Shown here: positions 21,025 to 63,184 of the stretch, in pieces
Layout: each line of letters starts with the position of its first letter
Numbering within the stretch: position 1 is the first letter of the stretch
Made by a program: the position numbers and the translations under genes
Sequence record: DRR378314_1695
DNA: 64,000 nucleotides
Strand: one strand, 5' to 3'
The notes under the pieces: model-generated
Told to the model about the DNA's origin: nothing
The model's database searches: none
What the model saw: the letters and a program-made list of their open reading frames with translations, nothing else

Positions 21025-21067
21025 CAAAATAAAGGGAAATATACTTTATAGAATATGAGAAAAATCA
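21025..21067 (-). promoter_or_regulatory. Degenerate Crp/Fnr-type box plus -7 element for the efflux operon
   Basis: TGAGAAAAATCA at 21056-21067 (one mismatch); TTATTTTG on the minus strand 23 nt away. Confidence 0.55.
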
Positions 21068-21378
21068 TATAGGCTTCTATCCCAAAAGTATTCTTTACCG
21101 TTCATCCAAGAATATAGCAAACGATATATAATTATTGAATAGCTCATTGCCCTACGCGGGTGTCCCGGCTTGGCCCCATCATTCCGTAAAACCCATATAA
21201 GCGGGTTTCATCACTAAAATAACCGAATTAAATGTAGCGTTAGGAAATTTTAAAAAATCCATAGCAAAAGGACACCCCTAAAGCGCTTTTTTTTACCAAC
21301 GCTAAAGCAATGTCCTTTGACCAAATTTAGAATTTGATCCTACCCATTATTTAATAAGAGGTAGGGCCTATACTAATC

Positions 21379-21888
21379 CTAAAGAAATTTTCCAGTTTCG
21401 TCCAGTTTAACCCGCAACATTTTATCCCCGTTCTCTAATTTAACCTTATAGGTTTTCTTTGCACCTAGAACATCGGTAAAGGAGACCAAATAAATATCTT
21501 TCGTAATAACCCATCCTGGAAAACGATCCGCTATGCTCTCCCTTACTGAAGTTGGCAAATTTATATCCTTAAACTTTTCAGCAGTGCGCAGTAGCTTTCC
21601 ATCGCCATCATAAGCGGCAAGAATTTTGCCTTCGGGAATAAAAAAGGTAATATTATAAAGGTCATAATCGTCCTGATAATATTCTGAGCTTTTAATATCA
21701 TAGGTCGCCACCTTTTCCTGCAATAGCTTCACCGGCACAGATGCCAACTCTCCAGTGTTGATATCATTGAGATATTTATAGTTGGTGGCGTAAACCGTTA
21801 CCTCCGATAATTCAACCGTAGGGATAATTTGAGAAAAGGATTGGGCGGTTAGTCCAATAGCTAATAAACCAAATAGAATTTTTTTCAT
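21379..21888 (-). CDS. Secreted hypothetical protein with a PepSY/BLIP-like C-terminal repeat
   Basis: Signal peptide MKKILFGLLAIG; LPTSVRESIADRFPGWVITK segment typical of such repeats. Confidence 0.6.
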   Translation of the reverse strand: MKKILFGLLAIGLTAQSFSQIIPTVELSEVTVYATNYKYLNDINTGELASVPVKLLQEKVATYDIKSSEYYQDDYDLYNITFFIPEGKILAAYDGDGKLLRTAEKFKDINLPTSVRESIADRFPGWVITKDIYLVSFTDVLGAKKTYKVKLENGDKMLRVKLDETGKFL

Positions 21889-21945
21889 GATCATTAAGTT
21901 TAAATATTAATTAGTATTAACATGGACTTCCTTTGTCCAATGGTA

Positions 21946-21988
21946 GCAAATTATCCCAACTTAAGGGCTTCTACAATGACCTAAGTCA
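21946..21988 (-). promoter_or_regulatory. Crp/Fnr-type box plus -7 element
   Basis: AA-TGACCTAAGTCA-TT at 21977-21988; TAATTTGC on the minus strand 23 nt away. Confidence 0.75.
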
Positions 21989-22035
21989 TTATGCTACATT
22001 CAATTAAGAAATCCCACACCCCCAGAAGTCAGAAC

Positions 22036-22078
22036 TGACCAATGTCATATTTTACCATAAAAGAAGGAATTAGATTTG
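22036..22078 (+). promoter_or_regulatory. Crp/Fnr-type box plus -7 element (PNPOx-like gene, probably ppsA)
   Basis: TGACCAATGTCA at 22036-22047; TAGATTTG at 22071-22078. Confidence 0.85.
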
Positions 22079-22161
22079 ATGTTAATAAGGATTTATGCGA
22101 AATGCCTTTTAGGGAATTCCATAAACTGTCACAGAATAGTTTAAAGATTATAAAAAGGAAT

Positions 22162-22614
22162 ATGACAAATTTGACCAATAGCGAAAGTATTCGCTTACTA
22201 AAGGGCAACTACACCGGACACTTGGGATATATATATCAGGATAAGCCTTATGTTCTCCCTATTACCTATTATTATGACAAGGATGATCATTCCCTAATAA
22301 GTTATTCGGCAGATGGCCACAAAATAGATGCCATGCGTCAGAATACAGCGGTGACCTTATTGGTCGAGGAAGTAAAATCATCCAACAATTGGCAATCGGT
22401 TATGGCCCATGGCACCTATGAAGAACTTCAAGGAACCGATGCCAAATTTAAGTTGCATCAATTTACAGAGGGGGTAAAGGGTCTTATCCTTGCCAAAGAG
22501 CATCGGGAAACTGAATTTATAAGTGAATTTTCAAGCAAATTGTACTCCCGCGGAATTCCGACGGTATATCGCATCAAAATATTAGAGATTACTGGAAAAA
22601 GGAAAGAAACCTAG
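22162..22614 (+). CDS. Pyridoxamine 5'-phosphate oxidase-like flavin-binding protein (NimA/Rv0080-like)
   Basis: GHLG, PYVLPITY, GHKIDAMRQN, WQSVMAHG; start ATG 22162 because the longer ORF begins inside the box. Confidence 0.85.
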   Translation: MTNLTNSESIRLLKGNYTGHLGYIYQDKPYVLPITYYYDKDDHSLISYSADGHKIDAMRQNTAVTLLVEEVKSSNNWQSVMAHGTYEELQGTDAKFKLHQFTEGVKGLILAKEHRETEFISEFSSKLYSRGIPTVYRIKILEITGKRKET

Positions 22615-22715
22615 CATAATCCCCCCAGGTTAGTTCCCCCTATTTTTCCAGCTATTAGCAATTAGCCTTACTCCTCAATAATGCTAATTTAAATAACCCA
22701 AATAATGTATTGGAG

Positions 22716-25124
22716 ATGGAAAACTATATAAGGCAATTTAACGACATAGATATAAACGATGTTCCTGAAGTAGGAGGAAAAAATGCCTCTTTGGGCGAAA
22801 TGTACCAGAAACTTACCTCAAAAGGAATTCAGGTTCCGGACGGATTTGCCACTACCTCGGACGCCTATTGGCTCTTCCTGAAAGAAGCGCAATTAAAAGA
22901 ATCCATATTCACCGAGATTTCAAAATTGGATAAGAAGGATTTTTCCAATTTACGGGAAGTTGGGAGTGCTATAAGAACAAGTATAGCCAAAGCAGATTTT
23001 CCGCAAGCTATCAAATCTTCCCTTGAGGACGGATATAATACACTGGTAAAAAAATACGGTTCCCAAATTTCCTTGGCGGTCCGCAGCAGTGCCACGGCAG
23101 AGGACCTTCCCAATGCCAGTTTTGCAGGGCAACAGGAAACCTATCTCAATGTAAAGGGTTTTGATGAACTGATAGCTGCCTGTCATAAATGTTATGCCTC
23201 CTTATTCACCGATAGGGCCATAAAATACCGCGAAGATAATCATTTTGACCAGACCAAGGTAGCGCTATCCATAGGCGTGCAGTTAATGGTGCGCTCGGAC
23301 TTGGCAAGTTCCGGAGTAAATTTCACCTTGGATCCGGACACTGGTTTTGATAAGGTAGTTCTTGTTACCAGCACTTGGGGCCTAGGTGAAAATATAGTTC
23401 AGGGCAGTGTTAATCCGGACGAATACTTCGTTTATAAACCTAGTCTTAAAAATAGTATTCGCCAACCCATTATTTCAAGAAAATTGGGCAGCAAGGAAAA
23501 AACCATGATTTACGATACTTCTGGCAGCGGTACCTTTAACCTGGACACCACAATAGAAAAACAGGAAAAATTTGTACTTACCGATGCCGAGGTAAAAAAA
23601 CTTGCCGAATGGTCTATAATTATTGAGGAACATTATGGACGTCCCATGGATATAGAATGGGCAAAGGACGGTTTGACCAATGAATTGTTTATAGTCCAGG
23701 CCAGACCGGAGACGGTGCAAAGTGCAAAAAAGGATAAACTCAAAATCAGTACCTATACCTTGCTGGAAAAAGGCAAGGAAATTACAAGGGGAATGGGTCT
23801 GGGCAACAAAATATCTGCAGGGAAGGCACGTATTATACATAGTCCCCTAGAATCCCATAAGCTACAGCATGGAGAAATACTCATCACGGAAAAGACCGAT
23901 CCCGATTGGGATCCCATCCTTAAAAAAGCTGCCGGCATCATTACGGACCAAGGGGGGCGCACAAGTCATGCCGCCATAGTTGCTCGTGAGGTAGGAGCTG
24001 CAGCAATTGTTGGCACCCTTAATGCTACAAAAACAATAAAGGATGGCCAGGATATCACCATTTCATGTGCAGATGGGGATACTGGAGTAGTTTACGATGG
24101 AATACTGAAATGGGACGAAAAAACAGTGGATATTAAATCACTTAAAAAACCCGCAACCCAACCCATGCTTATTTTGGCAGATCCAGAGCAAGCCTTCAAA
24201 CTATCATTTTATCCCACTGCCGGCGTTGGTCTTATGCGATTGGAATTTGTCATCAATAATTCCATCCAAATCCATCCGATGGCCTTAAAGCATTTTGACA
24301 CCCTAAAGGACCCCACTGTAAAGGAAACTATTGAAAAACTCACCCACCATTACCCTAACAAGGCCAATTATTTTGTGCATAAACTGGCAGAGGGCATTGC
24401 CACCATTGCAGCCGCCTTTTATCCCAAAGATGTTATTGTGCGTACAAGCGATTTTAAATCCAATGAATATGCCAATTTAATAGGCGGTAAGGAATTTGAA
24501 CCAATTGAGTCCAACCCTATGATCGGTTTTAGAGGAGCATCACGCTACTATCATCCCAAATATCAGGAAGCCTTTGAATTGGAGTGCAAGGCCATGAAAA
24601 TGGTCAGGGAGGACATGGGTTTTAATAATGTTAAGATAATGATTCCCTTCTGTCGTACCCTTACCGAAGCTGAAAGAGTGGTTGACCTTATGGCAGATTA
24701 CGGACTGAAAAGGGGTGAGAATGGCCTACAGCTCTATATGATGACCGAAATTCCCAACAACGTAATGCTGGCCGAAGAGTTCGCACATTTTTTTGATGGC
24801 TTCTCTATCGGCTCCAACGACCTTACCCAATTGACCTTGGGCGTTGATCGCGATTCAGAGCTCTTAAGCGACATTTTTAACGCCAATGATCCTGGACTAA
24901 AAAAAATGATCGCCATGGTCATTGCTTCCGCCCACAAAACGAATACAAAAATTGGACTCTGCGGACAGGCTCCAAGTGATTATCCCGAGTTTGCACAGTT
25001 TCTTGTAGAAAAAGGAATCAATTCCATCTCCTTTAATCCGGATGCGCTCATTGAAGGAATCAAGAATATAAATATGGCAGAAAATCATAAGGTAAGTTTT
25101 GGAATGGCGGAAAGTAGTAATTGA
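22716..25124 (+). CDS. ppsA: Phosphoenolpyruvate synthase
   Basis: VGGKNASLGEM, AVRSSATAEDLP, GGRTSHAAI (phospho-His), SIGSNDLTQ. Confidence 0.95.
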   Translation: MENYIRQFNDIDINDVPEVGGKNASLGEMYQKLTSKGIQVPDGFATTSDAYWLFLKEAQLKESIFTEISKLDKKDFSNLREVGSAIRTSIAKADFPQAIKSSLEDGYNTLVKKYGSQISLAVRSSATAEDLPNASFAGQQETYLNVKGFDELIAACHKCYASLFTDRAIKYREDNHFDQTKVALSIGVQLMVRSDLASSGVNFTLDPDTGFDKVVLVTSTWGLGENIVQGSVNPDEYFVYKPSLKNSIRQPIISRKLGSKEKTMIYDTSGSGTFNLDTTIEKQEKFVLTDAEVKKLAEWSIIIEEHYGRPMDIEWAKDGLTNELFIVQARPETVQSAKKDKLKISTYTLLEKGKEITRGMGLGNKISAGKARIIHSPLESHKLQHGEILITEKTDPDWDPILKKAAGIITDQGGRTSHAAIVAREVGAAAIVGTLNATKTIKDGQDITISCADGDTGVVYDGILKWDEKTVDIKSLKKPATQPMLILADPEQAFKLSFYPTAGVGLMRLEFVINNSIQIHPMALKHFDTLKDPTVKETIEKLTHHYPNKANYFVHKLAEGIATIAAAFYPKDVIVRTSDFKSNEYANLIGGKEFEPIESNPMIGFRGASRYYHPKYQEAFELECKAMKMVREDMGFNNVKIMIPFCRTLTEAERVVDLMADYGLKRGENGLQLYMMTEIPNNVMLAEEFAHFFDGFSIGSNDLTQLTLGVDRDSELLSDIFNANDPGLKKMIAMVIASAHKTNTKIGLCGQAPSDYPEFAQFLVEKGINSISFNPDALIEGIKNINMAENHKVSFGMAESSN

Positions 25125-25245
25125 CATCCAAAAGGTAATTGGGCCCAATATATTTACTATTCATGGCCTTTGTCTGTTGAAACAAAAGATTCGCCAATTT
25201 TTGTTTCACTATAAATACAATAAGGGAACTACCCTGTTGGATTGA

Positions 25246-25288
25246 TGATTTATATCATTTCTCATCACCTTCGTAAATACTTCCTTTG
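25246..25288 (+). promoter_or_regulatory. Crp/Fnr-type box plus -7 element (pfkB-glk)
   Basis: A-TGATTTATATCA-T at 25246-25257; TTCCTTTG at 25281-25288. Confidence 0.8.
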
Positions 25289-25439
25289 TTATTACAATTG
25301 GGATACCCTAATGATTACCATAAACCAATCTGTAATAGTAGGTATTCCCCTATGAAATGGGAAACCTAAGCTTAGAACGTCTAATTTTTGCCCAAATCTA
25401 ATTCTGTTGGGCTGTGAACAATCATAAATTATAAATAAG

Positions 25440-26387: not shown

Positions 26388-26583
26388 ATGCTAATCTGAG
26401 AAGTAACAATTGGATGTCGAATACCTTTTGAGAGATTATGCACCTAACCCAGTACTTCTTCGGATGATATACCGTTATTTGGGCTTTTGCCAAAAAGCCA
26501 TTGAAGGAAGACATTGGATTACTTAATTTGTTTGAGAAAACTAGACTGGAAAAAATATAACCCTTATATAAAAGATTGACTTT

Positions 26584-27660: not shown

Positions 27661-27761
27661 AATGTGATGCTTTGCAGCTATCAAAATACAAGCAATGTAC
27701 ACCTGTAGAGCATCAATCTAGAATTCCTTGCCTTACTCCCATTAACCAACATGGAAAATCC

Positions 27762-28622: not shown

Positions 28623-28745
28623 TTTGTAAGGTATTGTAATTTATCAGCAAAACTTGCAAGCCACCCACTGAATCAATGGGAATAGATACCGTGATACTTG
28701 CCTATTTTAAGAAGTTAAATGGTTCATGGAATAAAATTGTTTCGT

Positions 28746-28819
28746 TAAAATTAGAACCTAATATTGTATCCATAAATGACTTCTATCATATATGGTAATA
28801 TTTCTATGCCCGAACTTCG
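28746..28819. promoter_or_regulatory. Single Crp/Fnr-type box centred between divergent promoters (usp / pta-ackA)
   Basis: TGACTTCTATCA at 28777-28788; TAATTTTA (minus) and GAACTTCG (plus), each 23 nt away. Confidence 0.75.
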
Positions 28820-28846
28820 CAACTCGAAAAAGAATATTAGAAATTC

Positions 28847-32644: not shown

Positions 32645-32718
32645 CAAAGTAAATGGATATGTATTCCTATTCAAATGATATATGTCATTTCTGGGACCAA
32701 TACATTTAAATAATTTTG
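32645..32718. promoter_or_regulatory. Single Crp/Fnr-type box centred between divergent promoters
   Basis: AAA-TGATATATGTCA-TTT at 32676-32687; TAATTTTG at 32711 (plus) and TTACTTTG (minus), each 23 nt away. Confidence 0.85.
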
Positions 32719-32755: not shown

Positions 32756-33142
32756 ATGGAAAAACAAATCATATATAATTCAAATCTACATTTTGAAAAC
32801 GAAATTTGGAGGCGCGAACTCTTCTTTTGGCAGGATGAACTCATTATTTTCAATAACAGGCTTAGTGAACTGGTTACTAGGTGGACCAAAAAAGAGGTAT
32901 TAAAACAATTGGACCACTTTCAGAACGAATTTATCCTACATGGCGGAGTAATTGAGGATTTATTGGAAGAAATGGAAATCCATGAAACCCTTATGGCCGA
33001 TCAAGATTTGTTGTCACATGATGCCATGGATGCAATGATGGTAAAAAAACATATGAAATTTCGAAAAAAAATGGAGATACAGGAAGAAATCTATACAGAT
33101 CTTAAAAAGGAATTCTTTCGTTTTTTGACCAAGTACCTATAA
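32756..33142 (+). CDS. Hypothetical helical protein, paralog of 36147..36542
   Basis: Shared LHxExxxWxxxxxFWxDE, HExL and KH..R..M motifs. Confidence 0.75.
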   Translation: MEKQIIYNSNLHFENEIWRRELFFWQDELIIFNNRLSELVTRWTKKEVLKQLDHFQNEFILHGGVIEDLLEEMEIHETLMADQDLLSHDAMDAMMVKKHMKFRKKMEIQEEIYTDLKKEFFRFLTKYL

Positions 33143-36146: not shown

Positions 36147-36542
36147 TCACAGTTTCTTGGCGTACCCAAAAACCATTTTTTTAAATTCCATAAAGTCTTT
36201 GGTAAACAAATCCATTTGGTCCCTGATATTTGAATGTTTTTCCCGGAAATCCTGATCGGATAGTCCTTTTTCCCCTTTTATTAAACGGGACAATAGCTTT
36301 TCATGTTCCACTATATCTGCCGCCAAATAATCAAATAAGGTTTCATGGATCTTGTCCAGATATTGTAACATCTGTCCGTATTCCGAAGCTTTTACCTGTT
36401 CCTTATCCAGCAAATCCGTAAAGAACCTGGCTTCATCCTTCCAAAAGGCAATGATGTTCAACCATTCCCTACTTTCCTTGTGTAAGGCATCCAGCCCTTC
36501 ACCTATCAATATTTCTTTTTTTGACTTTGGTCCAGTACTCAT
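36147..36542 (-). CDS. Hypothetical helical protein, paralog of 32756..33142
   Basis: LHKESREWLNIIAFWKDE, HEKL, KHSNIRDQM. Confidence 0.75.
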   Translation of the reverse strand: MSTGPKSKKEILIGEGLDALHKESREWLNIIAFWKDEARFFTDLLDKEQVKASEYGQMLQYLDKIHETLFDYLAADIVEHEKLLSRLIKGEKGLSDQDFREKHSNIRDQMDLFTKDFMEFKKMVFGYAKKL

Positions 36543-36569: not shown

Positions 36570-37337
36570 TTAGTCCAAATATCTTTTGATGAAGCTGGTC
36601 CTTAGACTTTTTCTTGCAGTCTTCAAAAGCGATTCTATTTCTTGAACGGTACTATTGTGTATTTTGGCAATTTCCGCTATACCAAATTGATGTTGCGTAA
36701 ATAGTTCAAATACCCTTCGCATTTGTTTGGGCATATGATATAGGACCATTTCTGAGTGTTTTCTAATGTTCTCCGCTCCCAACTCCTTATCCAATTGGAG
36801 TAATACTTTTTGATCGTCATCCCCAACAAAAATATGGTTTAGTACATAGTCATCCTTGGCATAGGAAATATCATCCAATTCTTCGTTCATAATTAAATCC
36901 CCGTCTCCATCCGTAGTGAATTTTTCCTGCATGCTTTCCCATTCAGGTTGCGAATAAGTATCTATATTTTCAAGGAACAAGGCATCAAATTCTTCCTCCA
37001 CAAAGATTGTCTCCAGCAATTCATCCACTTTCTTGAACATCCATGCATGCAGCTCATTTTTAATATTTATCTCATCCAAATGGTCATATACCTCTATAAA
37101 AAGCTGATCAATAATATCGTCCGCCTTATACCTGTTCCTATCTATCTTACCCTTTACCACGGCACGGTTGAGATTTTTTTGGACATATCGCCTCACTTTG
37201 GGCATCGTCTTTAACAATAACTGATTGAATGCCTTAAGGTCTCCCTCCTTTTTTAACCGTATTAAATCAGAAAAGGAATTGGCTACAAACACGTGAAACT
37301 CCCTTTGACTTTGAAATATATTTACTGACTCTTTCAT
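36570..37337 (-). CDS. Atypical sigma-70 (ECF-like) protein with region 2 and region 4 segments and an acidic linker
   Basis: GDLKAFNQL, ADDIIDQLFIEVY, HAWMFK (region 2-like); MPKQMRRVFEL and EIAKIHNSTVQEIESLLKTARKSLR (region 4 HTH-like). Confidence 0.65.
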   Translation of the reverse strand: MKESVNIFQSQREFHVFVANSFSDLIRLKKEGDLKAFNQLLLKTMPKVRRYVQKNLNRAVVKGKIDRNRYKADDIIDQLFIEVYDHLDEINIKNELHAWMFKKVDELLETIFVEEEFDALFLENIDTYSQPEWESMQEKFTTDGDGDLIMNEELDDISYAKDDYVLNHIFVGDDDQKVLLQLDKELGAENIRKHSEMVLYHMPKQMRRVFELFTQHQFGIAEIAKIHNSTVQEIESLLKTARKSLRTSFIKRYLD

Positions 37338-37371: not shown

Positions 37372-37414
37372 CAAAAATGCCAACTTCCTTCATCTAAAAA
37401 AATGATTTAAATCA
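37372..37414 (-). promoter_or_regulatory. Crp/Fnr-type box plus -7 element (sigma-like operon)
   Basis: Perfect palindrome ATGATTTAAATCAT at 37402-37415; CATTTTTG on the minus strand 23 nt away. Confidence 0.82.
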
Positions 37415-38014: not shown

Positions 38015-38088
38015 CTAATTTAAGAACTAATGACTGTAAATGATATGATTTATATCATTTACAAACCATTTTAATAGACTTATTTTTG
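38015..38088. promoter_or_regulatory. Single Crp/Fnr-type box centred between divergent promoters
   Basis: TGATTTATATCA at 38046-38057; TATTTTTG at 38081 (plus) and TAAATTAG (minus), each 23 nt away. Confidence 0.85.
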
Positions 38089-39072: not shown

Positions 39073-40140
39073 TTAAAAATCCGCTACCTCCCTAAGCCCC
39101 TTTTCATTTAAAATAATGATCCTTCTTCCATGATCGGTGGCGATCAGGCCTTCGTTCTTAAAATCCGTTAAGGTGCGGATAGCGGTTTCCGTTGCAGTAC
39201 CGATCATACCAGCGAAATCCTCCCTCGGTATTCCTATTCCCCCATTGGGTTTGTCCTGTATTACTTGTTTATCATAAAGTTCCAAAAGGGCCTTTGCAGC
39301 CCTTTGCCTTACCGAGGCAAATGCCATATCCACCAATTGTTCCTGCAGATGCATAAGATTATTCGAAATCATTCCAATAAATTTCTGTGAAACTACAGAG
39401 TTGCCATAAATTAATTTGGTAAAATCCTTCCTAGGTATGGCGCACATTTCGGCATCTTCCAACACAGTTGCATTTTCAACATAAACTTTATTGGAATTCA
39501 ATAGGGAAAGTTGCCCAACAAAATCCCCAGGGCCAAATATTCCTGTTACAAATTCCTTTCCGGATTCCGTGCTTTTATAGGTCTTAACACTGCCTTGTTC
39601 AATGAAATACAAAGAATTTGCGTTATCACCTTCCCAGAAAATTATATCCTTTTTATTGTATTTCTTTAGGGGGTAATCCTTGGAAAGACTCTTCATATCA
39701 ACGTATTGGGAGGCCTCGTCCAGGAATTTACTTAGGCCTTCCATGTTTTTGGCAATCTCCTTTTTAAGAAAGTCGCTCTTTCGTAATCGGGAGGAAATAG
39801 CTTCCAGCAATTCCTTTTCCTCAAATGGCTTGGTGAGATAATCGTCCGCCCCCAAATTCATTCCCAGTCTCACCTCTGCCCTATCGGTTTTTGCCGTCAA
39901 AAATATAAAGGGTATGCTAGCGGTTGTACTGTTTTTGCCCAATATTTCCAATACCCCATATCCGTCCAGTTCAGGCATCATTATATCGCATATGATTATG
40001 TCTGGCCTAAATTTTTCCGCAAGTTCTACCCCAATTTTTCCATTCTCGGCGGTAGCTACCTCGTAATTGGCCAATTCCAATATGTCTGCTGTATTTTCCC
40101 TTACATCCTTGTTATCTTCAATTAATAGAATCCTTTTCAT
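39073..40140 (-). CDS. Response regulator, REC plus cNMP-binding-like plus Crp/Fnr HTH
   Basis: LLIED, CDIMMP (phospho-Asp), FLTA, TKPF; beta-roll FIEQGSVK...GDFVG; HTH REDFAGMIGTATETAIRTL. Confidence 0.92.
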   Translation of the reverse strand: MKRILLIEDNKDVRENTADILELANYEVATAENGKIGVELAEKFRPDIIICDIMMPELDGYGVLEILGKNSTTASIPFIFLTAKTDRAEVRLGMNLGADDYLTKPFEEKELLEAISSRLRKSDFLKKEIAKNMEGLSKFLDEASQYVDMKSLSKDYPLKKYNKKDIIFWEGDNANSLYFIEQGSVKTYKSTESGKEFVTGIFGPGDFVGQLSLLNSNKVYVENATVLEDAEMCAIPRKDFTKLIYGNSVVSQKFIGMISNNLMHLQEQLVDMAFASVRQRAAKALLELYDKQVIQDKPNGGIGIPREDFAGMIGTATETAIRTLTDFKNEGLIATDHGRRIIILNEKGLREVADF

Positions 40141-42871
40141 ATTCGTTTATATTTATGGGCAGTTTTAGACTGAAGGTGCTTCCTTTCCCCAATTTACTTT
40201 TAAACCCTACAGTTCCGCTTAGAAGCCCCGTATACTGTTTTACTATATTAAGACCAAGTCCGGTCCCTTGGAAATTGGTGGCATTTTCCGCACGGTAAAA
40301 TCGCTCGAACAACTTTTTCTGATTTGCCTTAGGGATGCCGATTCCTTGATCCTTAACATGGATAAATAGCTCTTTATCATTAGCATCAACTTCCAATCCA
40401 ATAATTTGTCCTTCCATGGAATACTTAATGGCATTAGAAAGTAGATTAATAATAATATGGTTCAACAATTTGGGGTCAAGACAAACCGATATAGAGGGTT
40501 GGGAATAGTTTAAAACAATGTCCTGACCCTCTTTTTTGTTTGGTTCCATCTCATCGACCAACATTTTTAAGAATTGTATCAACTCAAAAAACTGTGGTTT
40601 CACAGATACCTTACCCTCTTCCAACTTGCTTAAGGATAGAAAATCGTTAAGAATAACAACAAGATCCCTCACATTGGTCCTAATCCTGGAGACATGCTTC
40701 ATCCTCCTATCCTCCTTACCTGGCTCATTCTGTTTTCCTATCAGTATAGCCGAAGAAAGAATAGCACTCAAAGGTGTGCGGAATTCATGGGATGCTATCG
40801 TAATAAAACGGGATTTTAACTCATTTAGTTCCTTTTCCACCATTATTGTCCTTTCAAGTTTATGCTGTACCTCTTTCTGCTCGGTAACATTGTTATAAAC
40901 GAACAAGGCCCACATTATTTTCTTTTCATCAGAATAGAGCGGTGTAGAATTAACAGCATAGCATTGATCGTGAAAATCTACTTCAAAAGAAATATTGCCC
41001 CCCCTCAGAGTTTTTCGAATATCCGATTTTATTTTTTTGATCTGTATTTTTGAAAAAACAGGGATATCATCTATTGGAATTCCTTCAAAATCCGACTTTT
41101 TAATGTTGATTCGGTCCATTTCCTCCCCTTCCACATAAACCAATTCATAATCGGAATTAAATACCATGATGACCCCATTGGGAAAATTATGTGCAATAGC
41201 AGTAAACAAGGCCCTACTGAGATTTGCCTTCCTTTGAGCTCTTTGGGTCTCGATCATTTGATCTTCCAGATTTAAATTGGTCGATACCAGTTTTTCTACC
41301 GTAGTTTGAACTTCCCTAGTCCGTTCTTCAACTTTGTCTTCCAATACATGGGCATATTCCTCCAGTTTTCTCTTGGCATCCTGAATTTCGGTAACATCGT
41401 TCAGGACCCCAATGAAATGAGTCAGTTTCTGATCTTGATCATATAGGGGCGTAATAAACAAATCGTTCCAAAAAAGAATGCCGTCCTTACTGTAATTCCG
41501 AATCAATACCCGGCAGGAACTACCGTGGTCAATGGCTTTGGACATAAAGGCAATTTCGGGCTGGTTACGATCGCCGTTCTGCAAGAATCTGCAATTTCTC
41601 CCCAGAACTTCATTGGCCCCATATCCGGTAATTCGGGTAAAGGCCTTATTAGAATATATAATGGGAAGATCGGGATGCTGGGCATCCACAATAATAATAC
41701 CGTTGCCTACGGCTTCCAAGGCCCTGTTTCTAATTTTTAAGGTTTCTTGGGTCAACTTGGTTTCCGTAATATCCAGTCCAGAACTTACGACCGCTATAAT
41801 TTCATTGTTTCCATTCCTCAAGGCAGCATTGCTCCATTGAATTAGGTGCTCTTGCCCTCCTTTGGCAACAATAGGGTTTTCATGAAAGTTGGGCAGATCT
41901 AATTTATCTTCAAAAATAGATTCAAAAAGTTGGATCAATTGGTTTTGCTTCCTTTTAGGTATAAATTCCTTAAACCAGTTTTTATTCAAAATAGCATCTT
42001 GTTCAATTCCCAATATTTCACTGGTCCTTTTATTGACAAGTTGAACAGTATGGTCCTTATTGATCACTAGAAACATGGAAGGCGAAGTGTCCATATATTG
42101 GCGGAGCAATTTTTTTTCCATCACTAGGGCGTGTTCTGTAGTCTTCAACTCTGTATAATCCTGCATAAAGCCTTCCCGTCTATAAGGAATATCATTTTCA
42201 TCCATAATACAGGAACCGTGCTCCCATATCCATTTTATTTCCTTTTTTGAGGTAATTATCCTATACCGAAGCTGGTACGATCCTTTTTCCATTACGGCCC
42301 TGTCAAGTTCAGACTCAACCTGTGGCAAATCCTCTGGGTGAATTAAATTTCCCCAATTAAGTTTAGAGTTACCATAAAACTGATCAGGGGCATATCCACT
42401 AATAGTTTTGGAAGCCTCGCTAATGAATTCCATGGACCATGGCTTGGCAATACTACAACTGTATACAATTCCGGCAACATTGGTGACCAAAGTTCTGAAC
42501 TTCCTGTCGCTTTCAAACACCGGGTTATCCGCTCGCTTGCAGTAGATCACTTTTAGGCTTTGGCCTTTTAGTACGGTTGGTACGATCCTAATATCGATAG
42601 GAAATTTAACCCCGTTCTTTTCCCGACCATAAAACTGATTGGGCCCTACTACAATCTCATTCATTTCCGCCGCAAGGGCATTAATCTTCCAGTCAGGAAT
42701 AATCAAATGGATATCCTGCTGTAGCAACTCACCCTCAACATAACCGAACATTTGTTCTGCCGACTTGTTGGCGGTGAGAACAAATCCATTTTGGTCTACC
42801 ACAATAAGTCCGGCTAAGGAAGATTCAAAAATGGATTGAAAAAGATCGCTATTTGTTATTTTTTCATTCAT
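40118..42871 (-). CDS. Multi-PAS sensor histidine kinase containing a LOV domain
   Basis: Several PAS domains; GRNCRFLQ at 41579-41602; H-box SHEFRTPL, NLLSNAIKYS, DQGIG, GTGLGL; start ATG 42871. Confidence 0.92.
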   Translation of the reverse strand: MNEKITNSDLFQSIFESSLAGLIVVDQNGFVLTANKSAEQMFGYVEGELLQQDIHLIIPDWKINALAAEMNEIVVGPNQFYGREKNGVKFPIDIRIVPTVLKGQSLKVIYCKRADNPVFESDRKFRTLVTNVAGIVYSCSIAKPWSMEFISEASKTISGYAPDQFYGNSKLNWGNLIHPEDLPQVESELDRAVMEKGSYQLRYRIITSKKEIKWIWEHGSCIMDENDIPYRREGFMQDYTELKTTEHALVMEKKLLRQYMDTSPSMFLVINKDHTVQLVNKRTSEILGIEQDAILNKNWFKEFIPKRKQNQLIQLFESIFEDKLDLPNFHENPIVAKGGQEHLIQWSNAALRNGNNEIIAVVSSGLDITETKLTQETLKIRNRALEAVGNGIIIVDAQHPDLPIIYSNKAFTRITGYGANEVLGRNCRFLQNGDRNQPEIAFMSKAIDHGSSCRVLIRNYSKDGILFWNDLFITPLYDQDQKLTHFIGVLNDVTEIQDAKRKLEEYAHVLEDKVEERTREVQTTVEKLVSTNLNLEDQMIETQRAQRKANLSRALFTAIAHNFPNGVIMVFNSDYELVYVEGEEMDRINIKKSDFEGIPIDDIPVFSKIQIKKIKSDIRKTLRGGNISFEVDFHDQCYAVNSTPLYSDEKKIMWALFVYNNVTEQKEVQHKLERTIMVEKELNELKSRFITIASHEFRTPLSAILSSAILIGKQNEPGKEDRRMKHVSRIRTNVRDLVVILNDFLSLSKLEEGKVSVKPQFFELIQFLKMLVDEMEPNKKEGQDIVLNYSQPSISVCLDPKLLNHIIINLLSNAIKYSMEGQIIGLEVDANDKELFIHVKDQGIGIPKANQKKLFERFYRAENATNFQGTGLGLNIVKQYTGLLSGTVGFKSKLGKGSTFSLKLPININEYEKDSIN

Positions 42872-42996
42872 TGCCCTTTTACTGATTTTCACTTTATGGT
42901 CTTGGCCGCACCAACAAGGACGGACCGCTAAGGAGTTTTGTTGAATACACACTATCCATGGAGGCCTGTATTCCAATAATTTAGTACTCAGTTACA

Positions 42997-43039
42997 CAAA
43001 TGTATTGTTCACTATAGCCGAAAGAAATGATATCCGTCA
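42997..43039 (-). promoter_or_regulatory. Crp/Fnr-type box plus -7 element driving the LOV kinase-regulator operon
   Basis: TGATATCCGTCA at 43028-43039; TACATTTG on the minus strand (43004-42997). Confidence 0.85.
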
Positions 43040-43065: not shown

Positions 43066-43108
43066 TGATAACGGTCATATGTGCATTTCTTTATATGGAA
43101 TAATTTTG
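43066..43108 (+). promoter_or_regulatory. Crp/Fnr-type box plus -7 element (patatin)
   Basis: TGATAACGGTCA at 43066-43077; TAATTTTG at 43101-43108. Confidence 0.85.
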
Positions 43109-44705: not shown

Positions 44706-44779
44706 CCAAAGTACATCCAATTACCTATGTACAAAATGATTTAGGTCAGTCACACAAAATTTCTTTACATTTATTTTTA
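44706..44779. promoter_or_regulatory. Single Crp/Fnr-type box centred between divergent promoters (hsp20 / P-type ATPase)
   Basis: TGATTTAGGTCA at 44737-44748; TACTTTGG (minus) and TATTTTTA (plus), each 23 nt away. Confidence 0.8.
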
Positions 44780-52022: not shown

Positions 52023-52065
52023 TGAAGATATTTCCACAGCACGACATTGACAATGACAAATGTCA
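52023..52065 (-). promoter_or_regulatory. Crp/Fnr-type box plus -7-like element (M50 protease)
   Basis: A-TGACAAATGTCA-T at 52054-52065; TATCTTCA on the minus strand 23 nt away. Confidence 0.75.
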
Positions 52066-54182: not shown

Positions 54183-54225
54183 CTAAAATAGTGTATCGCA
54201 ATCCAGTACAAAATGACCAATGTCA
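54183..54225 (-). promoter_or_regulatory. Crp/Fnr-type box plus -7 element (WG-SDR operon)
   Basis: AA-TGACCAATGTCA-TT at 54214-54225; TATTTTAG on the minus strand 23 nt away. Confidence 0.82.
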
Positions 54226-54353: not shown

Positions 54354-54396
54354 TGACCAATATCATTTTAAATAGTCCGGCTGCTATATATTTTTG
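54354..54396 (+). promoter_or_regulatory. Crp/Fnr-type box plus -7 element (usp)
   Basis: TGACCAATATCA at 54354-54365; TATTTTTG at 54389-54396. Confidence 0.85.
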
Positions 54397-55368: not shown

Positions 55369-55401
55369 TCAATGATCGGAGTCCCAAATAATACTAAAGG
55401 T

Positions 55402-55806: not shown

Positions 55807-55831
55807 GTTTAGATTGTTATAGACAATGAGC

Positions 55832-55894
55832 TAAAATTAGCAAATAGCCCAAGTATTATATATGACAATAATCAGTTTAAAAATTTTATCTTTG
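55832..55894. promoter_or_regulatory. Crp/Fnr-type box, activator geometry for the TerB-like gene and overlapping the heme-PAS kinase promoter
   Basis: TGACAATAATCA at 55863-55874; TAATTTTA (minus) 23 nt away; TATCTTTG (plus) at 55887-55894, only 12 nt away. Confidence 0.75.
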
Positions 55895-55898
55895 GCTT

Positions 55899-57410
55899 AT
55901 GCAGGCCTTTCAAAAAAACAGTGAAATATTCAACCTTCTTTCGGAAGGGGTATCCGAAGGAATTATAGTTGTCAATACCCAACAGCTTATAGTAGCCACT
56001 AATTCCTCGGCCGGGAGAATGTTTGGTTACAGTAAGGGAGAGCTCCTTGGAAAACCCTTGGACACCCTAATACCTAGAAGGTACCACGGGCATCACGGTC
56101 ACCATGTGGAGGACTTTATTGATAAAAGTGAACGTCGGCAAATGGGCCGGGGCAGGGATTTACATGGGGTAAGAAAAAACGGTGAGGAATTTCCTGTTGA
56201 GGCGGGTCTAAATCCGTTTAAGCTTTATGACGAAACCTATGTCATGGCCCTAGTAATTGATATTACCGAACGCAAGGTCAAAGAAAAAGAACTAAGCCAT
56301 TGGGCAAGGATATTTGATGAATCCCTCAATGAAATCTACGTTTTCGACGCCATCTCAAAATATTTTGTAAACGTAAACAAAGAGGCCCAGCGAAATATGG
56401 GCTATAACCTGGAAGAATTTAAGACATTGAAGCCATTGGACATTAAGCCCCATATGGACTCCCCACAATTCCAATTGCTAATAGAACCCTTGCTTAACGG
56501 CTCAAGGGACAAGGTAAAGTTTGAAACCGACCATCAAAGAAAGGACGGGTCTATCTATCCCGTAGAAGTACATTTGCAACTATCTACATTTGGTGAAAAA
56601 GATGTTATTGTAGCTATAATACTTGATATTACAGAGAGAAGGAATTATACCGAAAAGCTGGAAAAAAAGGTCCAAGAGCGTACCAAACAACTTACGGAAG
56701 CCTTGGCCAAGGAGAAGGAATTGAACGAGCTAAAAACACGCTTCCTTTCCTTGGTTTCCCATGAATTCAAGACCCCTTTGAGCAGTATACTTACCTCTAT
56801 TACCTTATTGTCCAAGTATACCGAAAGTCACCAACAGGAAAAGAGGGATAAGCACGTTGAAACCATAAAGAACAAAGTACGCTATCTGGATACTATTTTG
56901 ACCGATTTTCTTTCGGTGGAGCGTTTGGATTCTGGAAAGGTAAATTACAAGTTAGAAACTTTCCCTTTAAGCAAAATTGTAAACGAGGTAGTCTATGGTG
57001 CCAACATGCTCCTTAAGGCGGGCCAAACCATTAAATATCCGGAGAATATCGATGATATTTTCATCAGATTTGACGAAAAAACCTTGGAACTGGCCTTGTC
57101 CAACCTAATACATAATGCCATTAAATATTCCCCAGAAGATACAACTATAAGTCTAGCGGTGAGCAATGGTAAGGACACCGTACTAATAGATGTGATCGAT
57201 CGTGGCATTGGCATACCTGCACAGGACCAAAAACATATTTTTAATCGTTATTTTAGGGCGGAAAATGCATTGTTGAACCAAGGTACGGGTATTGGACTTA
57301 ACATTGCTAAACAGCATTTGGAAAATCTTGGCGCCACTATTGAATTTACCAGTGAAGAAAACAAAGGATCTATATTTACTATAGTTATCCCTTTAGAAAA
57401 CATAAATTGA
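55899..57410 (+). CDS. FixL-like heme-PAS sensor histidine kinase
   Basis: PAS-A LIPRRYHGHH...MGRGRDLHGVRKNGEEFPVE, second PAS, H-box SHEFKTPL, NAIKYS, GTGIGL. Confidence 0.9.
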   Translation: MQAFQKNSEIFNLLSEGVSEGIIVVNTQQLIVATNSSAGRMFGYSKGELLGKPLDTLIPRRYHGHHGHHVEDFIDKSERRQMGRGRDLHGVRKNGEEFPVEAGLNPFKLYDETYVMALVIDITERKVKEKELSHWARIFDESLNEIYVFDAISKYFVNVNKEAQRNMGYNLEEFKTLKPLDIKPHMDSPQFQLLIEPLLNGSRDKVKFETDHQRKDGSIYPVEVHLQLSTFGEKDVIVAIILDITERRNYTEKLEKKVQERTKQLTEALAKEKELNELKTRFLSLVSHEFKTPLSSILTSITLLSKYTESHQQEKRDKHVETIKNKVRYLDTILTDFLSVERLDSGKVNYKLETFPLSKIVNEVVYGANMLLKAGQTIKYPENIDDIFIRFDEKTLELALSNLIHNAIKYSPEDTTISLAVSNGKDTVLIDVIDRGIGIPAQDQKHIFNRYFRAENALLNQGTGIGLNIAKQHLENLGATIEFTSEENKGSIFTIVIPLENIN

Positions 57411-57417
57411 AAGAGCA

Positions 57418-58470
57418 ATGAAGACAATTCTATTAATCGAGGACGATAGGGCCTTGCGTGAAAATACCGAAGAGCTTTTGGAGCTTTCAGGTTATTCCAT
57501 GATTACGGCCCCAAACGGAAAAATTGGTATTCAAATGGCCAAGGAAAAATTGCCGGATATTATTGTCTGCGATATTATGATGCCAGAGGTGGATGGTTAT
57601 GGCGTTCTAAAGGACTTGTCTTCAGACGAAAGCACCAAACATATTCCCTTTATATTCCTATCTGCCAAAACCGAACATAAAGAGATACGACGTGGAATGG
57701 ATCTGGGCGCCGATGATTACCTTACCAAGCCTTTTGAAGAGGAAGACCTCATAAACGCCATAGAAAGTAGATTGGCCAAAGTGGAACTATTGGGGCGTAT
57801 GGCAAAGGAAGGGACGCTGGATCCGGCAGTTTCGGAAGATCAGATACGCACCTTGAACGAGTTGAAGAATTTTTTTGACGACAATGGAGAACCCACTAGT
57901 TTTCCCCAAGGCAGTACCATCTACCAAGAAGGGACCTATTCTCATAAAATATACCTTATCCTAAAAGGGGTCGTAAAATGCCATACTATGGACGAGGACG
58001 GAAAAGAATTGATCACTTCCCTGTTTAGGGCAGATGACTTTTTAGGATTTACCTCCTTTATAGACAATATTCCTTATCAGGAATCGGCAACCGCCATCGA
58101 GGATGTGGAACTGGCCGGGATATCCAAGGAAAATTTAAAGCAGGTGTTGGAAAAGAACCACAATATCTCCTTGGAACTCATGGAACTGCTTACTGGAAAT
58201 ATTAAGGACATAAAACAGCAATTGTTGCAAATGGCCTATAGTTCCGTGCGAAAGAAAACCGCCCAAACCTTGTTGCAGTTCGCAGAAATAATGAACAAAA
58301 AAACCGAGGATCCCATTAAAATTTCCCGAAATGATCTGGCCAGTGTAGCCGGTATTGCTACCGAAAGCCTTATCCGCACGCTGTCCGGATTCAAAAAGGA
58401 AGGACTAATAGACATTGAAGGCAGAAATATCCGTATCAAGGAATTAAAGGCCCTGCAATACATCAATTAA
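57418..58470 (+). CDS. Response regulator, REC plus cNMP-binding-like plus Crp/Fnr HTH
   Basis: LLIEDD, CDIMMP, TKPF; HTH RNDLASVAGIATESLIRTL; paralog of 39073..40140. Confidence 0.92.
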   Translation: MKTILLIEDDRALRENTEELLELSGYSMITAPNGKIGIQMAKEKLPDIIVCDIMMPEVDGYGVLKDLSSDESTKHIPFIFLSAKTEHKEIRRGMDLGADDYLTKPFEEEDLINAIESRLAKVELLGRMAKEGTLDPAVSEDQIRTLNELKNFFDDNGEPTSFPQGSTIYQEGTYSHKIYLILKGVVKCHTMDEDGKELITSLFRADDFLGFTSFIDNIPYQESATAIEDVELAGISKENLKQVLEKNHNISLELMELLTGNIKDIKQQLLQMAYSSVRKKTAQTLLQFAEIMNKKTEDPIKISRNDLASVAGIATESLIRTLSGFKKEGLIDIEGRNIRIKELKALQYIN

Positions 58471-58503
58471 GGATATTCTTAACACTATATTTTTACTGGA
58501 AAC

Positions 58504-58546
58504 TGACCAATGTCATATTACAGTTATGGCCATAAGTTTAGTTTTG
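58504..58546 (+). promoter_or_regulatory. Crp/Fnr-type box plus -7 element (usp array)
   Basis: TGACCAATGTCA at 58504-58515; TAGTTTTG at 58539-58546. Confidence 0.87.
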
Positions 58547-58571
58547 TATTGATGTAGCTATTTAATTTTGA

Positions 58572-59408: not shown

Positions 59409-59438
59409 ACGCACCCCCATGGGTTGATATAGGGCTAC

Positions 59439-59481
59439 TGATAAATGTCATAGGTTTTATATGTCGCTACCAATAACTTTG
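59439..59481 (+). promoter_or_regulatory. Crp/Fnr-type box plus -7 element (usp array)
   Basis: TGATAAATGTCA at 59439-59450; TAACTTTG at 59474-59481. Confidence 0.87.
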
Positions 59482-59503
59482 ATAGGTATACAAAAGAAAA
59501 CCT

Positions 59504-60349: not shown

Positions 60350-60366
60350 TTTAAAAAGATGTAAGG

Positions 60367-61230
60367 ATGAAAAAAATTTTGTTGCCCACCGACTTTTCCA
60401 CTAACGCTTGGAACGCCATCGTGTATACGGTGAATTATTTCCAAAATGAAAAGTGTCTTTTCTATATACTTCACACCTATACCCCTACTTTTTACAGGGT
60501 AGATTATATGATGGGAGGTCCGGTCAATAGTGCCATTCCCGACAAGGGTGTAGAGGTGGCCCAGGCAGGTTTGGAAAAGACGCTAAGGGATTTAAGAAAG
60601 AACCTGCATAACAAAAACCATCAATTCAAAACCATTTCATCTTTTAATATTCTAACCGATGAAATTGAAGAGGTTACCGCAAGGGAGGGAATAGACATCA
60701 TTGCCATGGGAACCCAGGGAGCTACAGGGGCCAAGGAAATCTTTTTGGGAACCAACACGGTCCATGTTATCAAAAAAGCCAAGATTCCGGTATTGGCCAT
60801 TCCCAATGGTTATGCCTTTAAGGAAATTGATTCCATAGTCTTCCCTACAGATTACACCACGCCTTATGACCCAGAGGCATTAGGTTTTCTGGCAGAAATG
60901 TCCAAGTTGCAAAAGGCTAGAATAATAGTACTGAATGTTAAGGAGGATTTTGTCCTTAACGAGAAACAAAATGCCCATAAAAAAGCCCTAGGCGCTTTCC
61001 TTCAGCCCATGGACCATAGCTTTGAGCAGGTCAAGGGCGAATTAATGCCCAATGCCATACATGAATATGTGGAAAAACATAGAATTGGGCTACTGGCCAT
61101 CATGAACCGCAAACATACATTTTTACATCGGCTGATCAATAAATCTACTATAGACTCCATTGGATATCATTCCAGGATACCCTTTGTAGCCATACCAGAA
61201 AGTTGGGAAGAACCCCTTAAAAAAACTTAA
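60367..61230 (+). CDS. Universal stress protein
   Basis: ILLPTDFS, IAMGTQG, GTNT. Confidence 0.94.
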   Translation: MKKILLPTDFSTNAWNAIVYTVNYFQNEKCLFYILHTYTPTFYRVDYMMGGPVNSAIPDKGVEVAQAGLEKTLRDLRKNLHNKNHQFKTISSFNILTDEIEEVTAREGIDIIAMGTQGATGAKEIFLGTNTVHVIKKAKIPVLAIPNGYAFKEIDSIVFPTDYTTPYDPEALGFLAEMSKLQKARIIVLNVKEDFVLNEKQNAHKKALGAFLQPMDHSFEQVKGELMPNAIHEYVEKHRIGLLAIMNRKHTFLHRLINKSTIDSIGYHSRIPFVAIPESWEEPLKKT

Positions 61231-62081
61231 TGATGAAAAATATATTGTTGCCGACAGATTTTTCCGATAATGCCTGGAATGCCATATTTACAGCATTAAA
61301 ACTCTATGCCGATGTGAAATGTACATTTCTCATTTTACATGCCTATGAGCCAAAGGCCTTGAACATGTTAGGGCAAAAAAATCAACAGAGATTAGGAATC
61401 ATTTACGACTCATTGGCACTGAATGCTGCTCAGGAATTGGAAAAAATATTGTCTTACCTAAGCGAAAACCACAACAACCCTAACCATAAATTTGAAACCA
61501 TATCAAAGTCCGATACTTTGGAAGGCGCAGTTAAGGAATTAGCCTCTACCAAGGATATAGACCTCGTTGTTATGGGAACTCAAGGTGCTACCGGAGCAAA
61601 GGAAATCTTTATGGGCAGCAATACGGTAAAAGTCCTAAAACAACTTAATAATATTTCCATTTTAGTGGTTCCCAAGGACTATAACTTCCAAAAGTTAAAG
61701 ACGCTGGTCTTCCCTACAGATTATACCAGGAAGTATGAAAAGTTTGAGCTATTGCCCATGACAGAACTTACAAAACTTTGGAACGCAACCATACAGGTGA
61801 TACATGTGGCAGTAGAATTTTTACTCAACGACGTCCAGGAAGCAAACCAAAAAATTTTGGAAGAGCGTTTAGCCGGTTATAACTATAGCCTACATGAACT
61901 TGGCTTCGATGGCAATATTGCACAAAGTGTTGAGCAGTATGTAGCTGAAACCAGGGCAGATCTATTGACCATGGTGCGGTACCATCATAACTTTTGGGAA
62001 AGAATTATAGATGAGCCCGTAATAAAAAAAATAGCCTTTCATTCCACGGTGCCGGTCTTGTTCCTACCCGAGCAGTCATAG
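61230..62081 (+). CDS. Universal stress protein
   Basis: ILLPTDFS, VVMGTQG, GSNT; TAATG stop/start overlap. Confidence 0.94.
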   Translation: MMKNILLPTDFSDNAWNAIFTALKLYADVKCTFLILHAYEPKALNMLGQKNQQRLGIIYDSLALNAAQELEKILSYLSENHNNPNHKFETISKSDTLEGAVKELASTKDIDLVVMGTQGATGAKEIFMGSNTVKVLKQLNNISILVVPKDYNFQKLKTLVFPTDYTRKYEKFELLPMTELTKLWNATIQVIHVAVEFLLNDVQEANQKILEERLAGYNYSLHELGFDGNIAQSVEQYVAETRADLLTMVRYHHNFWERIIDEPVIKKIAFHSTVPVLFLPEQS

Positions 62082-62245
62082 GAAGGGCAAATAAAAGCCG
62101 TTTAACTATAAAAAAGATGGTACATACATGATTCAGAAAATTATTATACCCTAAGGGTAATAACACTTTTAATCATTACAGCTTACACCCTCTTGAATGA
62201 AACTCTAAAGCTGCAGTGACCACTAAAAGCTATAAAAACAAACAA

Positions 62246-63106
62246 ATGAAAGCAAAACATATACTACTGCCCACGGACTTCTCGGCAAACGCGCGGAATG
62301 CCATAGACTACGCCATTTACCTTTTTGAAAAGGTAGATTGTGTATTTCATATTTTGCATGCCTTTGAAGTTGGGGCATCCAATTTGAGCAGTACCATGGG
62401 AAAGGCAAAGGACACTCGCCTATTTAGGGCAATAAAGGATGAATCCCAGAGAGACATGAAATCCCTAATAGACGAACTGGAATCCGCAAATAAAAATACT
62501 AAGCACTCTTTTAAGGGATTAAGTATCGCCGATTCCTTGGTAAATGCCATAGGAAGAACCACTATCGATAAAGGCATACAATATATTTTTATGGGAACCA
62601 AAGGTTCCTCCGCTCTGAAAGAGGTATTTATGGGCAGCAACACGGTAAGGATTATTCAGAAAATAGACTTCTGCCCTATCATTGCCGTTCCTGAAAATTA
62701 TGATTTTGATCTTCCTGACGAAATAGCCTTTGCCACAAATTTTGAACATATTTACAGTGAGGTAGAACTGGTACCGCTCATAGGATTGGCAAAATTATGG
62801 AACTCCAAAATCACCATCGTACATATTGATACGGGCAAGGAATTGCAACCCCATCAACAAACAGCCAAAGATACATTGCCCAAAAGGTTCTTTGGCCTAA
62901 ATCACGGTTTTGAAGAAATTAAAGGACATACTTCTATTTCTGGGGCCATAAATGGCTATACCCATGAAAATGAAAATATAGGAATGATTGCCATGGTAAA
63001 TTATTGGCACAGTTTCTTTGAGAAGTTAACCAAAGAAAATGTTATAAAGCGGGTAGCCTTCAATACGGAAGTACCTTTTTTAATATTTCCCCTGATAGAA
63101 CCCTAA
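62246..63106 (+). CDS. Universal stress protein
   Basis: ILLPTDFS, IFMGTKG, GSNT; start ATG 62246. Confidence 0.94.
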   Translation: MKAKHILLPTDFSANARNAIDYAIYLFEKVDCVFHILHAFEVGASNLSSTMGKAKDTRLFRAIKDESQRDMKSLIDELESANKNTKHSFKGLSIADSLVNAIGRTTIDKGIQYIFMGTKGSSALKEVFMGSNTVRIIQKIDFCPIIAVPENYDFDLPDEIAFATNFEHIYSEVELVPLIGLAKLWNSKITIVHIDTGKELQPHQQTAKDTLPKRFFGLNHGFEEIKGHTSISGAINGYTHENENIGMIAMVNYWHSFFEKLTKENVIKRVAFNTEVPFLIFPLIEP

Positions 63107-63141
63107 ACGTTGCTACCATTTTACAACAATTACGGCCCACA

Positions 63142-63184
63142 TGATATATGTCATAGGGCAACAATTCTAGAGCAATTAATTTTA
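63142..63184 (+). promoter_or_regulatory. Crp/Fnr-type box plus -7 element (usp)
   Basis: A-TGATATATGTCA-T at 63142-63153; TAATTTTA at 63177-63184. Confidence 0.82.

Follow-up and report, generated by a model that had tools for sequence, protein, structure and literature searches.

The FixL-FixJ-FixK(2) cascade of rhizobia and Caulobacter ends in FixK, a cofactor-free output regulator of the Crp/Fnr family, and FnrN, an Fe-S FNR, shares its box with FixK. In FixL-type PAS domains, a proximal His and a distal Arg have haem- and ligand-binding roles. The mycobacterial DosR regulon and the lxa locus contain oxygen-limitation-controlled genes of universal stress proteins (Usps), a small heat-shock protein, pfkB, a CBS protein and a P-type ATPase. 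The pocket of CRP for cyclic AMP (cAMP) comprises Gly-Glu and Arg, and an Arg precedes the Glu of the recognition helix. The lxa locus of Burkholderia has been named a low-oxygen locus (PMC3759415, PMC4505428). In Escherichia coli, 19 of 23 FNR-activated promoters have a site within 4 nucleotides (nt) of -41.5 (PMC3688515), and the recognition helix of FNR uses Glu209, Ser212 and Arg213 (PMC4505428). The element TAnnTTTG is located at -12 to -5 in Flavobacterium psychrophilum (PMC9723704), and a Crp/Fnr homolog of Flavobacteriales has been treated as MalR-like (PMC8510549). Here, the palindromic box TGAY-N4-RTCA and its promoter partner, a TAnnTTTG-like octamer (the Bacteroidota -7 element), are described in a stretch of 64,000 nt from sequence record DRR378314_1695, referred to as the window, together with the receiver-Crp regulators RR1 and RR2 and the histidine kinases HK1 and HK2 encoded there.

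The palindrome is likely to be the FNR/FixK-type box of Flavobacteriaceae, controlling a genome-wide low-oxygen regulon and read by three proteins with an AxE[ST]xIR helix. This reading is carried by the motif, its spacing, orientation and conservation, the gene content, the identity of the helices, and the geometry and induction of two promoters in a relative. The nearest relatives of the window's regulator were found in Arenibacter species, and the window derives from an Arenibacter-like marine flavobacterium.

The whole window contained 19 exact boxes, 17 of them intergenic and two in coding DNA (8145, 41430); no TAnnTTTG-like element was detected at 23 nt from the latter two. Intergenic DNA was defined after shifting four mechanical starts of open reading frames (22042, 38012, 43079, 52059) to later codons by judgement, and the boxes at 22036 and 52054 overlap mechanical starts. 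In the intergenic DNA past 18 kb (4,736 nt), the 17 exact boxes compare with 0.3 expected and with a maximum of 4 across 300 Markov simulations. When the N4 spacer was replaced by lengths of 0-3 or 5-12, the same DNA gave 0-1 matches. The core is a TGAT-N4-ATCA palindrome with T or C, often C, at position 4. The 18 box coordinates given in a first-pass annotation of the window were all correct, 17 of the boxes being exact and the one at 21056 having one mismatch, and in a weight-matrix scan of the window all 18 sites ranked within the top 19 with a score gap beneath. The same annotation had seen no box in the intergenic DNA of the first 18 kb, which is true but weak, as only 1,142 intergenic nt are found there and the probability of zero boxes is about 0.017.

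The octamer was located at 23 nt from the box edge in 8 perfect copies, in 19 copies with at most one mismatch and in 22 with at most two, over 36 box sides; the earlier counts (22 positions, of which 8 perfect, 11 with one mismatch and 3 with two) were thereby reproduced exactly. At any other distance between 0 and 60 nt, at most two sides had an octamer with one mismatch or none. With the background rate of 0.0147, the binomial probability of the 23-nt peak was about 6e-24 after correction for 61 distances. The element was present on 22 of the 29 gene-facing sides versus none of the 7 sides pointing away from genes (Fisher p 4e-4), and four of the 18 boxes carried it at 23 nt on both sides. 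Chance or base composition as the source of the boxes was ruled out by the counts and the spacing statistics. The boxes, their elements and the regulator genes are located in the window as follows:

21025-21067, minus strand: box 21056-21067 (one mismatch) and -7 element 21025-21032, upstream of HlyD/FtsX/ABC exporter genes
21946-21988, minus strand: box 21977-21988 and weak element 21946-21953 (two mismatches), upstream of an unknown 171-aa gene
22036-22078, plus strand: box 22036-22047 and perfect element 22071-22078, pyridoxamine-oxidase-like gene followed by PEP synthase
25246-25288, plus strand: box 25246-25257 and element 25281-25288, pfkB and glucokinase
28746-28819, both strands: bidirectional box 28777-28788, elements 28746-28753 (Usp) and 28812-28819 (pta-ackA, two mismatches)
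32645-32718, both strands: bidirectional box 32676-32687, elements 32645-32652 (YgaP-like) and 32711-32718 (unknown gene, ABC1/UbiB kinase)
37372-37414, minus strand: box 37403-37414 and element 37372-37379, gene with weak sigma-70 likeness
38015-38088, both strands: bidirectional box 38046-38057, elements 38015-38022 and 38081-38088 (YtxH-like)
39073-40140, minus strand: RR1, regulator with receiver, cNMP-fold and Crp helix-turn-helix domains, helix ATETAIR
40118-42976, minus strand: HK1, multi-PAS histidine kinase, LOV domain at 41363-41746 with the photoactive Cys kept and Leu at the Gln site
42997-43039, minus strand: box 43028-43039 and perfect element 42997-43004, HK1-RR1 promoter
43066-43108, plus strand: box 43066-43077 and perfect element 43101-43108, patatin-like gene
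44706-44779, both strands: bidirectional box 44737-44748, elements 44706-44713 (Hsp20) and 44772-44779 (P-type ATPase)
52023-52065, minus strand: box 52054-52065 and weak element 52023-52030 (two mismatches), M50-CBS protease, glucan phosphorylase and upp
54183-54225, minus strand: box 54214-54225 and element 54183-54190, WG-repeat gene and SDR
54354-54396, plus strand: box 54354-54365 and perfect element 54389-54396, Usp
55832-55894, both strands: box 55863-55874, minus-strand element 55832-55839 at 23 nt and perfect plus-strand element 55887-55894 at 12 nt (HK2)
55899-57410, plus strand: HK2, histidine kinase with a FixL/DosP-like haem-PAS domain (His66, Arg86)
57418-58470, plus strand: RR2, regulator with receiver, cNMP-fold and Crp helix-turn-helix domains, helix ATESLIR
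58504-58546, plus strand: box 58504-58515 and perfect element 58539-58546, Usp
59439-59481, plus strand: box 59439-59450 and perfect element 59474-59481, four consecutive Usp genes
63142-63184, plus strand: box 63142-63153 and element 63177-63184, Usp-like gene extending beyond the window

The boxed genes include six Usp promoters or operons and both kinase-regulator operons. The geometry of the box at the HK1-RR1 promoter would correspond to positive autoregulation.

With the -7 element at -12 to -5, the spacing of 23 nt would place the centre of the window's boxes at about -41.5, the class II position. The same position was found in published start-site data of F. psychrophilum (PMC9723704 table). 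The starts of ccoI and ccoS are each preceded by a complete box, 23 nt away from the element, with centres at -41.5 and -40.5, respectively; the rows were chosen by gene name and the centres were counted by eye, position 51 of the 61-nt strings being taken as +1. Under oxygen limitation, the signals of ccoI and ccoS were 13.6-13.7 and 14.9-15.0 versus 8.3-8.9 and 9.8-10.3 in the CS1-CS3 columns, a difference of about 5 units, where the units are presumed to be on a log scale and CS1-CS3 are taken as the control columns, a presumed match only. The box of ccoI lies between ccoI and a divergent Crp/Fnr gene, at -34 to -23 of the latter, and the divergent start dropped from 10.8-11.8 to 9.6-10.5 under oxygen limitation. 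The unboxed starts of hemA, uspA and two desaturases shifted by about 1 unit or less. A word search of the start-site table gave no full box among the best 6 of 77 matches listed, and hemN-type names matched no row. The element calibration, the ccoI and ccoS starts and the position of E. coli FNR sites support the suggestion, made in the first-pass annotation, of an FNR-like operator placed for class II activation.

A second geometry is present at the HK2 promoter. Its perfect -7 element (55887-55894) is located 12 nt before the ATG, so that the predicted +1 coincides with the start codon, and the box lies 12 nt from the element, over the -33 region. Among 74 related kinase genes, 44 have a perfect element exactly 12 nt before the ATG, which gives independent support for the -12 calibration. 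In 26 of these genes the box covers the -33 region, 10-12 nt upstream of the element, and in 13 it is found at 21-27 nt, and 45 of the boxes at the related kinase promoters also serve a divergent gene at 23 nt. HK2-RR2 would be a leaderless sensor operon, possibly under negative feedback. The single box position described at first was incomplete, the repressive-looking position of 10-12 nt at the kinase promoter having been missed.

The box is not confined to the window. The nearest genome (G001), which shares 63% of words with the window and was used as a stand-in for its genome, had 73 modules of box, 23 nt and element with one mismatch allowed, compared with 5 for a reversed control. A genome-wide motif scan with a spacing histogram had been set beforehand as a check, and it gave these counts as well as a 23-nt peak in relatives. 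An operator restricted to the island of the window was rejected on the same counts. Outside the island, G001 modules precede ccoI, ccoNO (about 230 nt upstream), nadA and a radical SAM gene which we take to be hemN-like from its position and motif. Further boxed genes of G001 encode a D-lactate-type dehydrogenase, more Usps, a cytochrome c and, beside the cbb3 genes, a stand-alone Crp/Fnr protein; these annotations come from 25 stretches covering part of the 73 sites.

The module was present at all 80 related receiver-Crp loci, where 473 of 1,098 sides had the element at 23 nt and at most 25 at any other distance between 10 and 40 nt. The A...T flank reported at first held on one side: in the 473 modules, the promoter-side base was T in 443 and A in 1, but the far-side base was C in 249, A in 191 and T in 12. 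In 61 module-locus pairs of close relatives (those passing a limit of 20 mismatches), none of the 366 fixed positions in the box had changed, compared with 4 of the 366 in the element and 215 of 1,403 spacer positions (15%). The 22 receiver-Crp loci outside Flavobacteriaceae showed a weak peak at 23 nt (21 of 182 sides, the next distance having 7). A strict-pattern module search matched in 121 of 301 genomes of the phylum, including 23 of 23 Flavobacteriaceae.

Several neighbouring features were recorded. At 25125-25439, the window lacks about 1.8 kb that is present in G001 (L012:2908-5001) and that includes a boxed D-isomer 2-hydroxyacid dehydrogenase gene; the window box 25246 lies at this site, 182 nt from pfkB. 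The 255-aa protein encoded at 36570-37337 (minus strand), behind a boxed promoter, matches sigma-70 regions weakly. Behind boxes at 32756-33142, 36147-36542, L106:4375-4824 and L107:2718-3161, small unknown proteins are encoded which are helical and resemble one another in their W..EL.F..DE stretches; they possibly form one hemerythrin-like family.

The recognition helices of the candidate readers were almost identical: ATETAIR in RR1, ATESLIR in RR2 and ATESAIR in the stand-alone FNR-like protein of G001. In G001, four proteins passed the family cut-off, and the AxE[ST]xIR helix was present in all three of them that were examined. The Glu and Arg of FNR were kept and its Ser was replaced by Ile in 78 of 78 relatives, and the change of Ser212 to Ile may account for the altered outer base of the box. 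RR1 and RR2 contain two Cys each and an N-terminal receiver, so the four-Cys [4Fe-4S] set of FNR is lacking. In the stand-alone protein, the CxxC and the central Cys align with those of solved FNR, Phe replaces the third N-terminal Cys, and one extra Cys occurs elsewhere; its best match among solved structures was CrpPg of Porphyromonas gingivalis (PDB 2GAU). Control of RR2 by cAMP was rejected, since the residues of the cAMP pocket are absent (Gly-Phe and Tyr are found in their place, and Thr before the helix Glu).

The first PAS domain of HK2 matches FixL and DosP, and in a multiple alignment of 74 related kinases His66 was found in 73 and Arg86 in 65; the signal of HK2 would be sensed through haem and is probably O2. 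The LOV domain of HK1 (41363-41746, minus strand) has the GxNCRFLQ motif with its Cys and the two flavin-binding Asn, and the position of the active-site Gln is occupied by Leu. In related loci this position was Gln in 20 of 25 and otherwise His, Ser or Leu, and one domain had no Cys. LOV variants with Leu for Gln are reported to signal still (PMC9098866), and light or redox is proposed as the input of HK1. Of 151 family genomes, 24 had LOV domains of the HK1 type, and at 19 of the 25 loci an RR2-like receiver followed closely. In addition, five kinases (L022, L028, L037, L046, L051) join a haem-PAS and a LOV-like domain, four of them with Leu for Cys. A boxed operon of G001 (L005:6310-11518) encodes CheR/CheB-PAS, a PAS kinase and a single-domain receiver; the latter is 50% identical to the receiver of RR2, and cross-talk could occur.

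To compare the candidate readers, modules were counted in 75 of the 301 genomes, those belonging to the same class or more closely related (counts transcribed by hand). Among all 301 genomes, the survey cut-offs found a receiver-Crp protein in 41 and an FNR-like protein in 46. In the 23 Flavobacteriaceae, the median number of modules was 5 with only the FNR-like protein (n = 11) and 18 with both (n = 9), and the three genomes with only the receiver-Crp protein had 9, 9 and 19. Outside the family, the medians were 4 with only the FNR-like protein (n = 12) and 0.5 with neither (n = 12). A genome outside the class, G257, had 29 modules; its FNR-like protein is rich in Cys (helix ATETTIR), and no receiver-Crp protein was matched there. 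In the first-pass annotation, the box was assigned to the two island regulators as their local operator. This assignment is not supported in that form, as the box is genome-wide, it also occurs in genomes where no receiver-Crp protein was found, and the FNR-like protein has the same helix.

In the proposed mechanism, a dimer of the Crp/Fnr family would bind the box centred at -41.5 and activate promoters of the housekeeping sigma factor by a class II mechanism, and a single box could drive two divergent promoters. Binding and activation, as well as the assignment of proteins to promoters and to signals, are predicted here from sequence. The most likely readers would be the stand-alone FNR-like protein, RR1 and RR2. 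The latter two would be activated through phosphorylation, with HK2 (haem, probably O2) and HK1 (LOV, light or redox) as the kinases. A low-oxygen regulon of cbb3 oxidase and haem synthesis would have been enlarged in this lineage by a stress/dormancy island of Usps, Hsp20, pfkB, pta-ackA and the M50-CBS protease.

Several observations weigh against this reading. Outside the family, the genomes with only the receiver-Crp protein had a median of 1.5 modules (n = 26), six of them having none. Two genomes with only the receiver-Crp protein, G115 and G091, have modules before hemN-like and ccoN genes (from 30 of 46 matches), but both also encode other Crp proteins whose helices are related (VETVIR in both genomes, AVETLVR and TRESISR in G091) and which could be the readers of these boxes; the Crp proteins of a further genome of this type, G291, were read in part. 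The genomes are kin, so the contrasts between them are descriptive and not independent. The FNR-like protein has only three of the four aligned cysteines of FNR. In F. psychrophilum, an unboxed Usp start was also elevated by about 2 units under oxygen limitation, and the published test consists of two positive promoters in a relative and is not a survey.

It is unlikely that the readers divide the labour, the island promoters being served by RR1 and RR2 alone, as in the first-pass annotation, and the FNR-like protein acting only on the respiratory genes, through preferences outside the core. The increase in regulon size with the receiver-Crp gene (median 18 versus 5) and the enclosure of both regulator genes by the island would agree with such a division. 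However, the cbb3/hemN-like and island boxes of G001 share core, flank and spacing, a boxed Usp was found in G275, which has only the FNR-like protein, and the boxed ccoN of G115 belongs to a genome with only the receiver-Crp protein.

It is quite unlikely that the box is read by the FNR-like protein only, the receiver-Crp regulators being members of the regulon or binding another site. Each of the 11 family genomes with a match to the FNR-like protein alone did contain the module, the F. psychrophilum box is located between a Crp/Fnr gene and ccoI, and both kinase-regulator operons are themselves boxed. On the other side, the three family genomes with no FNR-like match keep 9-19 modules, the boxes cluster round the receiver-Crp gene in all 80 loci, and the helices are nearly identical.

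It is highly improbable that the palindrome is no Crp/Fnr site but part of a promoter class served by an alternative sigma factor or another protein, or that it marks a general stress regulon with no link to oxygen. The unusually rigid spacing, the many generic stress genes, the weakly sigma-like gene of the island and the LOV domain of HK1 could speak for such readings. Against them stand the dyad symmetry, the bidirectional use, the FNR core, the -41.5 position, the cbb3 targets, the induction by oxygen limitation and the near absence of modules where neither regulator was found.

An extension of the preferred reading, with the box read by all three AxE[ST]xIR proteins, can be put forward only tentatively. 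The operator might be a three-input OR gate, on which an Fe-S-like FNR and two kinases, one of the haem/O2 type and one with a blue-light LOV domain, would converge to drive one hypoxia-dormancy regulon. The receiver-Crp activators would then contact the divergent housekeeping sigma factor of Bacteroidota from the class II position of E. coli, and the same box would throttle the leaderless sensor operon. Light would then imitate low oxygen, or act ahead of it, in marine flavobacteria.

The published literature searched, outside subscription journals and the appendix of PMC9723704, described neither the box nor any receiver-Crp regulator of Bacteroidota, nor a low-oxygen regulator of aerobic Bacteroidota with its site, and the available part of Matsui 2013 (PMC3590769) had no passage on Flavobacteria. 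Aerobic Bacteroidota dominate the degradation of particles and algal surfaces, settings with oxygen swings. The 43-nt signature of box and promoter predicts regulon members with few false matches, as the G001 counts indicate, and it represents a ready-made hypoxia-inducible promoter. The system also allows one to ask how a sigma factor of Bacteroidota takes part in class II activation and in what way a Crp fold is switched by phosphorylation.

In comparison with the known systems, CrpPg of P. gingivalis (PDB 2GAU, PMC12040651) is alike as a Bacteroidota Crp/Fnr protein without cAMP binding, but its helix is TVSNAIR, its proposed site is like that of E. coli CRP and it has no receiver domain. 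The DosR regulon and the lxa locus resemble the island in their clustered Usps, small heat-shock protein, pfkB, CBS protein and P-type ATPase, whereas the regulator family here is distinct from the LuxR-type of DosR, and so is the box. The FixL-FixJ-FixK(2) cascade is alike in the haem-PAS kinase with aligned His and Arg, the cofactor-free Crp/Fnr output on an FNR-like box, the cbb3, ccoGHIS and haem genes and the sharing of a box with an FNR-type protein, which is proposed here for the stand-alone protein. In contrast to that cascade, the receiver and the Crp/Fnr output are fused here in one polypeptide, in place of a separate LuxR-type regulator that transcribes a separate Crp/Fnr gene, a paralogous pair with a LOV kinase is present, and the kinase gene is predicted to be leaderless. 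The class II promoters of E. coli FNR (PMC3688515, PMC4505428) share the TGAT-N4-ATCA core, the centre at -41.5, the helix Glu and Arg and the hypoxia targets, and they are also alike in having sites nearer the start at promoters that look repressed. The differences from E. coli FNR are the outer pair (A/C)...T instead of T...A, the frequent C at position 4, Ile in place of Ser212, the promoter of the Bacteroidota -7 type with the element spacing fixed at 23 nt, and, in two of the three candidate readers, the presence of a receiver domain and the lack of Fe-S cysteines. The concept of an FNR box at -41.5 is itself well established.

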